Shown here: positions 29,087 through 31,428 of the stretch, one piece after another
How the letters are laid out: each line of letters begins with the position of its first letter
Numbering within the stretch: the stretch's first letter is position 1
Source of the DNA: a virus
Lineage: Duplodnaviria; Caudoviricetes
DNA length: 64,000 nucleotides
IMG/VR virus record: IMGVR_UViG_2706796142_000001
Span: 11,148 to 75,147 of that record
Reading direction: 5' to 3' (one strand)
Translations under genes and position numbers: made by a program
Notes under the pieces: generated by a model
The model's database searches: none
The model's input: only the letters and a program-made list of their open reading frames with translations
What the model was told of the DNA's origin: nothing

Positions 29087-29476
29087 ATGCTAATTGATCC
29101 AGAAGAGAATGAAGAAGTTCTTGTCTCAGGAATTATGCTGTTTGACTGTAATGAACGTTTGATGTGTCCTGACTGTGGCACCATTAGCAACAAGCATCTG
29201 TGCTCTGCACCATTCTTTTACCAGTACAAACACAGTCCATTTATAGGCCCACAGTTTGTCTGTCATCACACCTGTCATCGTTGTGGTTACAAAGATGATG
29301 TGGGAAGTGGCTTCACTGACTCAGGTAACTATGAGTCTGAAGAAACAGATGGTATTCAGGAATGGGAAAAAGAAATCGATGAACTGGAAGATGAGCTTGC
29401 TATCTTAAAGCAGAAGTTGGAAAACGGTAAACGCCGTTGGGCAATGTTATGGCATGTTGATCATGATGCAACATAA
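29087..29476 (+). CDS. Putative zinc-ribbon protein with C-terminal coiled coil
   Basis: AAGGAGA RBS; CPDC, CHHTCHRC; acidic coiled coil. Confidence 0.65.
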   Translation: MLIDPEENEEVLVSGIMLFDCNERLMCPDCGTISNKHLCSAPFFYQYKHSPFIGPQFVCHHTCHRCGYKDDVGSGFTDSGNYESEETDGIQEWEKEIDELEDELAILKQKLENGKRRWAMLWHVDHDAT

Positions 29477-29490
29477 CGTAGGAGTTTACA

Positions 29491-29691
29491 GTGGAACATA
29501 TCCCTAAAGAAGAATTGATTGTTGGTAAGCGTTACAAGGGTCGTTGTCGTAACGCTACAGAAGCAGTATGGGATGGTAAACAATTCGAGTATACCCGTAG
29601 TAAGTTTGGGCATACATTTCAGGAGAAGATCTATTGTCCTGAAGATGATGATGTTTACGATGTGTTCTATGCTCAACAAGCTATTGACTAG
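29491..29691 (+). CDS. Hypothetical protein
   Basis: GTG start after AGGAG; YKGRCRNATEAVWDG...F.Y.R.KFG conserved phage pattern. Confidence 0.7.
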   Translation: MEHIPKEELIVGKRYKGRCRNATEAVWDGKQFEYTRSKFGHTFQEKIYCPEDDDVYDVFYAQQAID

Positions 29692-29720
29692 CAACATAAG
29701 TTGGTAGTAGTATCATTTTC

Positions 29721-29796
29721 GACGGGTTAGCTCAGTTGGTAGAGCGATTGACTGTTAATCAATTGGTCATCGGTTCAAATCCGGTACTCGTCGCCA
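29721..29796 (+). tRNA. tRNA-Asn(GTT)
   Basis: Cloverleaf; ATTGA-CTGTTAA-TCAAT anticodon arm; GGTTCAAATCC; encoded CCA. Confidence 0.95.
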
Positions 29797-29802
29797 AATT
29801 AT

Positions 29803-29879
29803 ATTCCCGTAGACAAATTGGTACAGTCACCACACTTTCACTGTGGAGTTTGTGGGTTCAAGTCCCATCGGGAATGCCA
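29803..29879 (+). tRNA. tRNA-Glu(TTC)
   Basis: ATTCCCG/CGGGAAT acceptor; CCACA-CTTTCAC-TGTGG; GGTTCAAGTCC; CCA. Confidence 0.9.
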
Positions 29880-29885
29880 AACAAT

Positions 29886-29961
29886 AGTCCTATAGTTCAG
29901 TCGGTAGAATACCTCCCTGTCACGGAGAAGGTCACGGGTTCGAGTCCCGTTAGGACTGCCA
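29886..29961 (+). tRNA. tRNA-Asp(GTC)
   Basis: AGTCCTA/TAGGACT acceptor; CTGTCAC loop; GGTTCGAGTCC; CCA. Confidence 0.93.
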
Positions 29962-29964
29962 AAT

Positions 29965-30040
29965 TGCTTCATAGCTCAGTGGGTAGAGCAACCGCCCGAT
30001 AAGCGGTAGGTCACTGGTTCAAGTCCAGTTGAAGCAACCA
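29965..30040 (+). tRNA. tRNA-Ile(GAT) with C33
   Basis: TGCTTCA/TGAAGCA acceptor; ACCGC-CCGATAA-GCGGT; GGTTCAAGTCC; CCA. Confidence 0.9.
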
Positions 30041-30042
30041 GT

Positions 30043-30123
30043 TTAGAGGTATTCAAGGTCGTTGGTCATAGTGGTTTTCGGTATAGCCCCGAACAACGTA
30101 AAATGATCCCTTGCCTCTAATCA
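30043..30123 (+). ncRNA. Candidate structured ncRNA A
   Basis: TTAGAGG/CCTCTAA, CAAGG/CCTTG, GTTG/CAAC, TTCGG/CCGAA nested stems; non-coding; inside tRNA array. Confidence 0.45.
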
Positions 30124-30124
30124 A

Positions 30125-30192
30125 TTCCGATTCGCTACCGGAAGACCTGTCAACCAGACACTAACTGGTCAATTGGGTGAGAAGCCCATTCA
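30125..30192 (+). ncRNA. Candidate structured ncRNA B
   Basis: TTCCG/CGGAA hairpin, ACCAG/CTGGT hairpin, TGGG-TGAGAAG-CCCA T-loop-like hairpin. Confidence 0.4.
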
Positions 30193-30198
30193 AATTAT

Positions 30199-30293
30199 GG
30201 AAGCTACAAACACAAGTAGGTCAGGTATTCCTTGGGGCAGTGTCTGACGTGAAAGTGGAATTGTGAGTGGTGAGAACCCACGAGCTTCCTGCA
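30199..30293 (+). ncRNA. Candidate tRNA-like ncRNA C
   Basis: 7-bp acceptor-like stem GGAAGCT/AGCTTCC plus TGCA tail; GTGG-TGAGAAC-CCAC T-arm; GTCAG/CTGAC arm without a 7-nt anticodon loop. Confidence 0.55.
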
Positions 30294-30298
30294 AATTA

Positions 30299-30380
30299 GG
30301 GGGATTAGTCAAGCGGTCGAAGACGGCAGACTGTAAATCTGTTATCCCACACGGTAGTTCGAATCTATCATCCCCCACCA
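30299..30380 (+). tRNA. tRNA-Tyr(GTA)
   Basis: GGGGGAT/ATCCCCC acceptor; GCAGA-CTGTAAA-TCTGT; variable arm; CCA. Confidence 0.93.
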
Positions 30381-30384
30381 ATTA

Positions 30385-30461
30385 CGGCATTTAGCTCAGT
30401 TTGGCAGAGCATCGGCTTTGGGAGTCGAGGGTCGAAGGTTCAAATCCTTCAGTGCCGACCA
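30385..30461 (+). tRNA. tRNA-Pro(TGG)
   Basis: CGGCATT/AGTGCCG acceptor; TCGGC-TTTGGGA-GTCGA; GGTTCAAATCC; CCA. Confidence 0.94.
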
Positions 30462-30466
30462 AATTT

Positions 30467-30558
30467 GGAAGATTGGCTGAGTGGCTAAAGGCGTCCGGTT
30501 GCTAACCGGAAGGCGGTGTAACAGCTTCCCACTGGTTCGAATCCAGTATCTTCCTCCA
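30467..30558 (+). tRNA. tRNA-Ser(GCT)
   Basis: GGAAGAT/ATCTTCC acceptor; TCCGG-TTGCTAA-CCGGA; long variable arm; CCA. Confidence 0.93.
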
Positions 30559-30563
30559 TCTTC

Positions 30564-30640
30564 AGGTCGTTAGCTCAGTTGGTTAGAGCACCGGACTTTT
30601 AATCCGGATGTCATTGGTTCGAGGCCAATACGACCTACCA
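30564..30640 (+). tRNA. tRNA-Lys(TTT)
   Basis: AGGTCGT/ACGACCT acceptor; CCGGA-CTTTTAA-TCCGG; CCA. Confidence 0.94.
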
Positions 30641-30642
30641 AA

Positions 30643-30759
30643 TTACAGTCCAGCTTTCTTCTAAATGAAACTCTATTGTGAGTGACAAATAGATCCCCTT
30701 AGGGGTAAGGGAAGTTGATAACAATATGCAGTACCCAACTACTGCTGGACTGTAACCCA
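30643..30759 (+). ncRNA. Candidate CCA-ended ncRNA D
   Basis: Perfect 12-bp terminal stem TTACAGTCCAGC/GCTGGACTGTAA followed by C-CCA; internal hairpins. Confidence 0.6.
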
Positions 30760-30866
30760 TTTCGGCTCGCTAATCCGAAAACTTGATGTGCTGCTTAACT
30801 GGGCTATCCCCCCATCCAAAAGGTTAACTGCACATCGCCTGCCTCGATTGGTTCCCGTAAGGAACT
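30760..30866 (+). ncRNA. Candidate structured ncRNA E
   Basis: TTTCGG/CCGAAA hairpin, GATGTGC/GCACATC with TTAAC/GTTAA, GTTCC/GGAAC hairpin. Confidence 0.4.
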
Positions 30867-30869
30867 ACT

Positions 30870-30905
30870 AAACCCCTGCATACACAACTATGCAGGGGTT
30901 TTTTT
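30870..30905 (+). terminator. Rho-independent terminator ending the tRNA array
   Basis: AACCCCTGCATA-CACAAC-TATGCAGGGGTT plus T tract. Confidence 0.9.
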
Positions 30906-30930
30906 ATATCTGAACCAAGAGGAAATACCA

Positions 30931-31428
30931 ATGAAGTTGAACCAACTGACTGATGAAATCCGTCACATGGTACTGGGTGCTGCACAGCATGTGCTGGCTA
31001 CTCAAGACGACCATGCATCGATGGATCGCTTCCTGACTAAAACCCATAAGCTGCTGGAGCATGAATTTCCTGAACCAGTAGAAGATGATGAGGCAGAGAT
31101 CACCATGATTGCCCGTCTGTGTCACCAAGCGAATAAAGCCTACTGTGAATCGCTGGGGGACTTCTCTCAGCCAGACTGGGAAGATGCACCTTCTGAGATC
31201 CGTGCGTCTGCCATGTTCGGAGTTGAGTTCCATCTGGAAGCTGATCGTACTCCTGCTGAGAGCCATGAAAACTGGATGAAGCAGAAGATACTGGATGGCT
31301 GGATGTATGGCCCGGTTAAGAACTTTGAAACCAAAGAACACCCTCTGCTGGTTGATTACGACCAGTTACCACAGGAACATAAATCGAAAGATTATATCTT
31401 CCGTGGTATCGTTAACGCCTTCAAATAA
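30931..31428 (+). CDS. RyR-domain protein
   Basis: IARLCHQANKAY, ESHENWMKQKILDGWMYGPVK...KEHPLLVDYDQLP...KD. Confidence 0.8.
   Translation: MKLNQLTDEIRHMVLGAAQHVLATQDDHASMDRFLTKTHKLLEHEFPEPVEDDEAEITMIARLCHQANKAYCESLGDFSQPDWEDAPSEIRASAMFGVEFHLEADRTPAESHENWMKQKILDGWMYGPVKNFETKEHPLLVDYDQLPQEHKSKDYIFRGIVNAFK

Follow-up and report, generated by a model that had tools for sequence, protein, structure and literature searches.

We found that the tRNA cluster of this phage contains a 95-nt stretch, unit C (positions 30199-30293 of the window, by which we mean the whole 64,000-nt stretch of DNA that was analysed; all window features given below are on the plus strand), which has the acceptor and T-arm layout of a tRNA, sits in the context of a tRNA operon, lacks decoding features and shares modules with other phages. 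Direct reading, folding and shuffling lead us to predict that it is a tRNA-like non-decoding RNA. On the reading which we prefer, at a probability of roughly 55%, unit C is a cassette-borne RNA of the same kind as the species 1 RNA of phage T4, though not a sequence relative of T4 rnaC; it would be transcribed, excised by RNase P and RNase E and stable, and may have a role.

The closest relatives of the window are the Johnsonvirus phages (Schitoviridae, N4-like) of Erwinia amylovora, at 95-99% identity. The nearest of these is vB_EamP_Rexella, which is 98.7% identical around the tRNA cluster, followed by Ea9-2 and Tellus. Unit C is present once in the 75,147-bp virus record. ARAGORN and Rfam identified eight tRNAs, all on the plus strand and split by a 258-nt gap into tRNA-Asn, Glu, Asp and Ile (29721-30040, with spacers of 3-6 nt) and tRNA-Tyr, Pro, Ser and Lys (30299-30640). 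CCA is encoded in all eight, and behind each there is an A/U-rich spacer, mostly AAUU. The gap is made up of units A, B and C, each of which ends in xCA followed by AAUU or AUU. The only promoter-like site across 29400-31000 is a putative sigma-70-like promoter, recognised by its match to the consensus (TTGACT, 18 nt, TAGTAT; 29684-29713), which lies 8 nt 5' of tRNA-Asn, and a strong intrinsic terminator consisting of a 13-bp stem and a T run (30870-30901) marks the end of the operon. The tRNAs and unit C therefore appear to belong to a single putative promoter-to-terminator operon. It should also be noted that tRNA-Pro(UGG), at 30385-30461 in this phage, is missing in Rexella despite the 98.7% identity there; this difference is a recent gain or loss of one cassette.

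The sequence 5' of unit C is CAAAUUAU, and no plausible ORF was found over the unit. Its acceptor-like stem is formed by seven Watson-Crick pairs between 30199-30205, which begins at G+1 with a U at -1, and 30283-30289 (pair probability 0.73-1.0). Beside this stem there is a hairpin in the position of a T arm (GUGG-UGAGAAC-CCAC, 30267-30281, P 0.62-0.80), which is separated from the acceptor 3' strand by a single nucleotide (G30282), so that the unit has the 7 + 5 position layout of a tRNA (30266-30282), with an A.G mismatch at '49-65'. A central arm of 12 bp with one bulge, three G.U pairs and the loop UUGG (30220-30248, P about 1.0) stands in place of both the D and anticodon arms; the GUCAG/CUGAC pairing is part of this helix, and GUGAAAG follows it at 30249-30255. 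The tail is UGCA (30290-30293) rather than CCA, and together with an AAUUA spacer it fills 30290-30298, directly 5' of tRNA-Tyr, where cleavage would be expected. The AATT-type spacers around unit C match those at the true tRNAs. Direct reading and folding here agreed with the initial annotation, which had described the stem, the T-arm-like hairpin, the arm replacing the anticodon arm, the GUGAAAG, the tail and the spacers from the letters of the sequence. It had also described a D-like CUAC/GUAG hairpin, but a cloverleaf-like reading with this hairpin fails on the folding ensemble: the hairpin has a pair probability of 0.00 and overlaps the acceptor stem, with which it cannot coexist because it uses acceptor C6 and U7. 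In the ensemble ACAA/UUGU lengthens the acceptor stem instead, giving a predicted three-way junction, and the stems of unit C also form when the whole gap is folded. With the exception of the D-like arm, the anatomy of unit C is real and non-random.

We compared this anatomy to chance expectation using dinucleotide shuffles of the 258-nt gap. The free energy of unit C (-30.0 kcal/mol, z = -1.62) is ordinary, which counts against our preferred reading, and a 7-bp stem alone was found in 44% of shuffles. The combination of the stem with a directly adjacent hairpin of 4 bp and a 7-nt loop was found in 125 of 20,000 shuffles (0.6%), and when U1 and A5 were also required in the loop this fell to 12 of 20,000 (0.06%).

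We also compared unit C to known RNA families. ARAGORN called no tRNA in unit C at its default settings, at thresholds of 70-80% or with introns allowed, and no tmRNA in tmRNA mode at a 70% threshold; in mitochondrial mode at a lowered threshold its calls were scattered across the gap and were disregarded. The Rfam covariance models for tRNA, tRNA-Sec, tmRNA and YrlA were all negative on unit C at E values up to 10, even on 116 nt, and no other Rfam family matched it at the gathering threshold or at E values up to 10. Weak matches to YrlA (RF02553) fell on true tRNAs only, and no rsr-like gene is annotated in the flanks of the tRNA cluster. Global alignments of unit C to the eight resident tRNAs were not significant, the best being to tRNA-Lys (z = 2.4). 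Descent of unit C from a resident tRNA is thus unsupported by the alignments. Of the properties of a canonical tRNA, unit C has the 7-bp acceptor and, stacked directly on it, a T stem of five positions (one of them an A.G mismatch) that carries a loop of 7 nt, and it lacks the cloverleaf arms, the UUCRANY T loop and the NCCA end. The negative ARAGORN and Rfam results and the non-significant alignments uphold the view in the initial annotation that this is a non-decoding RNA, and unit C does not have the appearance of a tRNA that broke recently.

We consider it very improbable that unit C is a decayed class II tRNA, such as a paralogue of tRNA-Ser. There are likenesses to the resident tRNA-Ser, as the acceptor strands have two adjacent differences in seven positions, the 3' end of unit C (CUUCCUGCA) is one base apart from that of tRNA-Ser (CUUCCUCCA) and the lengths are similar (95 nt for unit C and 92 nt for tRNA-Ser). 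However, the alignment to tRNA-Ser reached only z = 1.9, which like that to tRNA-Lys is not significant, neither ARAGORN nor the tRNA model gave any signal under relaxed settings, no remnant of a D arm or an anticodon loop can be seen, and BLAST gives no tRNA relatives. The loop of the T-arm-position hairpin also speaks against decay, since it matches a family of UGARARN loops better than an altered UUCGAAU.

This loop family is represented next to unit C by the hairpin which ends unit B (30125-30196). Unit B contains three hairpins. The first, on its 5' side (30125-30143), has a CGCUA loop; the third, UGGG-UGAGAAG-CCCA (30174-30188), is on its 3' side, 11 nt upstream of unit C, and the unit ends in UUCA and AAUU. 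Hairpins of this B type recur at a distance of 5-11 nt before a tRNA (Tyr, Gln, Gly, Leu, Ser, Pro or Arg) or a tRNA-like unit in phages of the Schitoviridae (Ea9-2, Tellus, phiEaP8, Fifi067 and UTK0001) and the Ackermannviridae (IME250, 0507-KN2-1 and CRW-SP2), as well as in Pantoea phage TacPo2, the record of which does not give a family, a T5-like phage and uncultured phages, including freshwater ones. Most have the form GGG-UGAGAAG-CCC, and there is a compensatory U-A to C-G change in the stem. We scanned for such hairpins with U fixed at loop position 1 and positions 2-7 left free, and sought a tRNA start within 15 nt downstream. All 11 matches with a downstream tRNA start have the loop UGAGAAG, UGAAAAG or UGAGAAU, and a UGAGA loop was found in none of the 107 remaining matches. 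The loop UGAGAGG occurs in two more members of the family, giving the consensus U-G-A-R-A-R-N, in which positions 1-5 are invariant UGARA and positions 6-7 are variable. No Rfam family matched the B-type hairpin. It seems to form the 3' end of RNAs that make up a widespread and so far undescribed family in the tRNA arrays of phages. The seven nucleotides behind the hairpin are in several phages able to pair, in tRNA register, with a strand 126-206 nt upstream, the cases including phiEaP8 (locus positions 1280-1472, where the pairing abuts the end of tRNA-Ile) and spans of 139 (two loci), 183 (EP_H11) and 126 (three loci). B-type RNAs may therefore be acceptor-closed themselves, although the pairing strands are A/U-rich, some of the 5' partners are implausibly placed and about 1-2 matches are expected by chance.

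The hairpin of unit C, with its loop UGAGAAC on a stem of 4 bp, fits the UGARARN family, whose stems have 4-5 bp, which argues against a decayed UUCGAAU T-loop, and its upstream AAUUG context is also similar to that of the B-type hairpins, save for a 5-nt duplication. It differs from them in that the hairpin closes the unit in B-type RNAs, whereas in unit C it is internal and the acceptor 3' strand comes after it. The hairpin of unit C is better explained as a copy of the B-type motif than as a mutated UUCGAAU T-loop. As B-type hairpins always stand before a tRNA, in enterobacterial phages mostly tRNA-Tyr, and unit C has a hairpin of this kind before tRNA-Tyr too, we also considered whether unit C could be part of the tRNA-Tyr 5' leader rather than a separate RNA, with the UGAGAA hairpin aiding the maturation or protection of neighbouring transcripts. 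This is quite improbable: the hairpin of unit C ends 17 nt before tRNA-Tyr (30281 to 30299), outside the 5-11 nt of the family, the relatives already receive such a hairpin from unit B, and the terminal stem and tRNA-type flanks mark unit C as a self-contained unit.

The initial annotation interpreted unit C as a mimic of the tRNA elbow, or docking module, in which UGAGA and perhaps UGAAA (30250-30254) would act as T-loops in tertiary contacts. The pattern of variation in the hairpin family, with UGARA invariant and positions 6-7 variable, is compatible with a T-loop (U1-A5, R4 and free positions 6-7), and the hairpin lies in exact T-arm register. However, a GNRA tetraloop (GAGA or GAAA) closed by U-A or U.G, with the seventh base bulged, would fit the same variation equally well, unit C is without a D-loop of the GG type with which an elbow could be made, the proposed D-like hairpin does not form, and the YrlA and tmRNA models were without match. 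Its positive support being the compatibility of the loop, we regard elbow mimicry as improbable.

In order to find relatives of unit C we searched 50,697 phage records with blastn, and the only matches were a full and identical copy in Rexella and a 46-nt piece in the T4-like Kosakonia phage Kc304. The copy in Rexella is uninformative because the background identity is already 98.7%, and the fact that a full copy is found elsewhere only in the Rexella lineage counts against our preferred reading. Scans for exact patterns from both halves of unit C gave no matches in IMG/VR or in metagenome contigs, a scan with the 5' half gave none in genome contigs, and patterns independent of the acceptor, taken from the hairpin region and from the central arm, returned nothing beyond chance matches in coding DNA. 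A covariance model built from unit C, R1, was run on the window, on 13 tRNA-cluster loci (14 sources in all) and on the whole 75,147-bp record, and matched nothing but unit C.

The segment shared with Kc304 (30191-30236, 95.7% identity) places the region of the first 46 nt of unit C in the tRNA cluster of that phage, where it is joined at a GGGCAG microhomology to another unit, X. Kc304 keeps the 5' strand of the perfect stem of unit C without the 3' strand. The simplest reading of these sequences is that Kc304 carries a truncated unit C, and as a 5' strand without its partner implies an intact predecessor, the C-type cassette would be older than the Rexella lineage. In that case C-type cassettes are, or once were, in circulation in intact form among the phages that infect Erwinia, Kosakonia and related hosts.

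Unit X is itself a tRNA-like RNA of 89 nt. Its acceptor stem has 7 bp, its T arm is canonical and it ends in ACCA, and it has no recognisable D or anticodon arms. It lies at positions 1104-1196 of the tRNA-cluster locus in Ea9-2, 1171-1263 in Tellus and 1544-1636 in Kc304, and is 98% identical between the N4-like Erwinia phages (Ea9-2 and Tellus) and the T4-like Kc304. In Ea9-2 and Tellus it is found between tRNA-Tyr and tRNA-Ser, the slot which is taken by tRNA-Pro in the window. Unit X has a weak match to the Rfam tmRNA model (19.7 bits, E 3e-4).

In comparison with Ea9-2 and phiEaP8, unit C is a 101-nt insertion (30197-30297) with CAAATT direct repeats at both edges. Ea9-2, Tellus and phiEaP8 are without unit C and have unit B joined straight to tRNA-Tyr, which counts against our preferred reading; since close relatives do without it, unit C is dispensable and accessory at best. 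Units A, B and X and tRNA-Pro vary among close relatives as well, and the tRNA cluster acts as an array of exchangeable cassettes. The main rival to our preferred reading follows from this, namely that unit C is a neutral mosaic of cassette pieces joined by recombination at CAAAUU repeats, which would be transcribed and perhaps processed but would have no role. We consider this a possible, if somewhat unlikely, account. It would explain the insertion between direct repeats, and it is in keeping with the swapping, gain and loss of units among close relatives (tRNA-Pro being present or absent), with modules that N4-like and T4-like phages share at 96-98% identity, with the resemblance of the 3' part of unit C to the hairpin region of unit B with a 5-nt duplication, and with the great rarity of unit C, of which the 5' piece is also found in Kc304. 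On the other hand, judging from the shuffles, random joining would hardly be expected to yield a perfect stem of 7 bp which coincides with the ends of the unit and stands in exact tRNA register to the hairpin, and the fragment in Kc304 points to an intact element of greater age.

Further non-tRNA units accompany unit C. Unit A (30043-30123) is a hairpin RNA with a 7-bp terminal stem, followed by UCA and AUU, and its slot is occupied by different A-type units in Ea9-2, Tellus and phiEaP8. Two more structured units, D and E (30643-30840), come after tRNA-Lys; unit D has a closing stem and a CCA end, and unit E begins with a second hairpin with a CGCUA loop (30760-30780). Unit D (30643-30759) has compensatory differences between the Johnsonvirus phages and phiEaP8. 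Units closed by a terminal stem and ending in NCA or CCA and an AAUU-type spacer are numerous; units A and D of the window are of this sort, and IME250 and 0507-KN2-1 carry a long series of them. A tRNA-framed RNA in Escherichia phage EP_H11 (locus positions 610-694) has normal acceptor, D and T arms, but a closed region of larger size replaces the anticodon loop; it scores 52 bits with the Rfam tRNA model and receives no ARAGORN call.

On our preferred reading, in which unit C is a processed cassette RNA, it would be co-transcribed with the eight tRNAs from one promoter. The terminal stem would stack on the 5-position hairpin to give a 12-step acceptor/T minihelix of tRNA size, and with G+1 paired with C and a U at -1 this stack would direct the host RNase P to cut at G30199. 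RNase P recognises the coaxial stack of acceptor and T arms and cleaves many substrates which are not tRNAs (PMC11143913). As the acceptor/T stack has the dimensions of that in a tRNA, a cut at G30199 is to be expected, and because unit C begins 11 nt after the hairpin of unit B, the usual place of a tRNA, it lies at the position of an RNase P substrate. The UGCA tail weakens the contact of RCCA with the RNase P RNA, and this counts against the preferred reading. In the A/U-rich spacer after UGCA, a cut by RNase E followed by trimming would leave an RNA of about 95 nt. Such an RNA could not decode, since one long arm replaces the D and anticodon arms, and its charging would be unlikely with GCA instead of CCA. 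These features support the idea that the cell treats unit C as a tRNA-like processing unit. Its role, if any, would most likely be to engage a factor which reads the acceptor/T half of tRNAs. In a more specific form of this idea, the UGARA hairpin would be a recognition module of undescribed phage RNAs with a tRNA frame, and unit C a dedicated non-decoding decoy or adaptor directed at host or defence factors that read the acceptor/T half, the candidate partners being RNase P, the CCA-adding enzyme and toxins which target the acceptor end. We regard this more specific form as unlikely.

Taken alone, unit C is a variant from a single lineage, as read from its sequence. It suggests, however, that the design of an acceptor/T minihelix without decoding arms extends to N4-like phages, that tRNA-like RNAs of this design are assembled from exchangeable cassettes which move across unrelated phage families, and that such RNAs can carry a non-canonical UGARA loop, a motif which many phages conserve immediately before their tRNAs. 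Should RNAs of this kind prove to be decoys or processing devices, the compact unit C, with 95 nt and three helices, would lend itself to use as a minimal model.

Among known systems, the tRNA-like domain of tmRNA (RF00023) and the Y RNA-like YrlA of bacteria and phages (RF02553) are like unit C in being non-decoding and in having the acceptor/T half of a tRNA. Unit C differs from them in being without CCA, a tag reading frame, a Ro-binding stem or an rsr neighbour. In mascRNA/MALAT1 and in tRNA punctuation, a tRNA-like fold is a signal for RNase P, and the cut also defines where the RNA upstream of it ends, which in the case of unit C would be unit B. This is a functional analogy only, mascRNA/MALAT1 being a eukaryotic nuclear system which is not homologous to unit C, and since the Johnsonvirus relatives use tRNA-Tyr itself for punctuation, unit C is not needed for such a role.

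The tRNA clusters of phages have been known since the 1970s to contain tRNA-like "stable RNAs", such as species 1 and 2 of T4, and a literature search turned up no paper that deals with such tRNA-like RNAs in N4-like phages. The species 1 RNA of T4 (rnaC; 139 nt, NC_000866 70908-71046) is, like unit C, non-coding, located within a phage tRNA cluster and co-oriented with it, and it likewise has a 7-bp acceptor-like stem beside a T-arm hairpin, no anticodon arm and a body of long helices. Unit C thus shows the features of T4 species 1 in its position and strand in a tRNA operon, its tRNA-type boundaries, its acceptor and T arm and its want of an anticodon arm. It is shorter than rnaC (95 vs 139 nt) and has one arm instead of two, and its loop is UGAGAAC on a stem of 4 bp and a mismatch, whereas rnaC has the canonical UUCGAAU loop on a 5-bp T stem. 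There is no sequence similarity between the two, either by model R1 on the T4 locus or by BLAST. A descriptor scan of tRNA clusters found at least eight other units with an acceptor and an adjacent T arm which ARAGORN does not call as tRNA, including the 3' tRNA-like domain of T4 rnaC, unit X (Ea9-2, Tellus and Kc304) and units in Fifi067, UTK0001, IME250, 0507-KN2-1 and CRW-SP2.

The two T4 RNAs, RNAC and RNAD, are stable RNAs which have been seen on Northern blots and whose function is unknown (PMC9697503; PMC3014915; PMC12685909). The loop CGCUAC of rnaD and of unit B is complementary to GUAGCG, of which there are two sites in T4 rnaC and one in unit X (at locus position 1161 in Ea9-2, 1228 in Tellus and 1601 in Kc304), so that loop-loop pairing between neighbouring units is possible for rnaD and rnaC in T4 and with unit X. 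We rejected such a pairing for unit C, as neither GUAGCG nor UAGCGA occurs in the operon of the window. T4 rnaD is like unit B in starting, just after a tRNA-type end, with a hairpin whose loop contains CGCUA and which is followed by an AAG-type motif; this 5' hairpin motif alone is shared, the remainder does not align, and the link between unit B and T4 rnaD therefore appears to be at the level of a motif. The CGCUA loop is found on four different stems, always at the start of a unit, in T4 rnaD, in unit E and in the B units of the Erwinia phages and of UTK0001. In the locus of the Salmonella phage UTK0001 the hairpin is at positions 1110-1129, and in the T4 locus it is on the minus strand. 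In the T4 tRNA cluster rnaD comes first and then rnaC, an order which parallels that of units B and C here, each rnaD-type unit standing beside a tRNA-like unit; with the CGCUA hairpin in unit B, the gap upstream of tRNA-Tyr can be read in the T4 manner, with a unit that resembles rnaD standing before a tRNA-like one.
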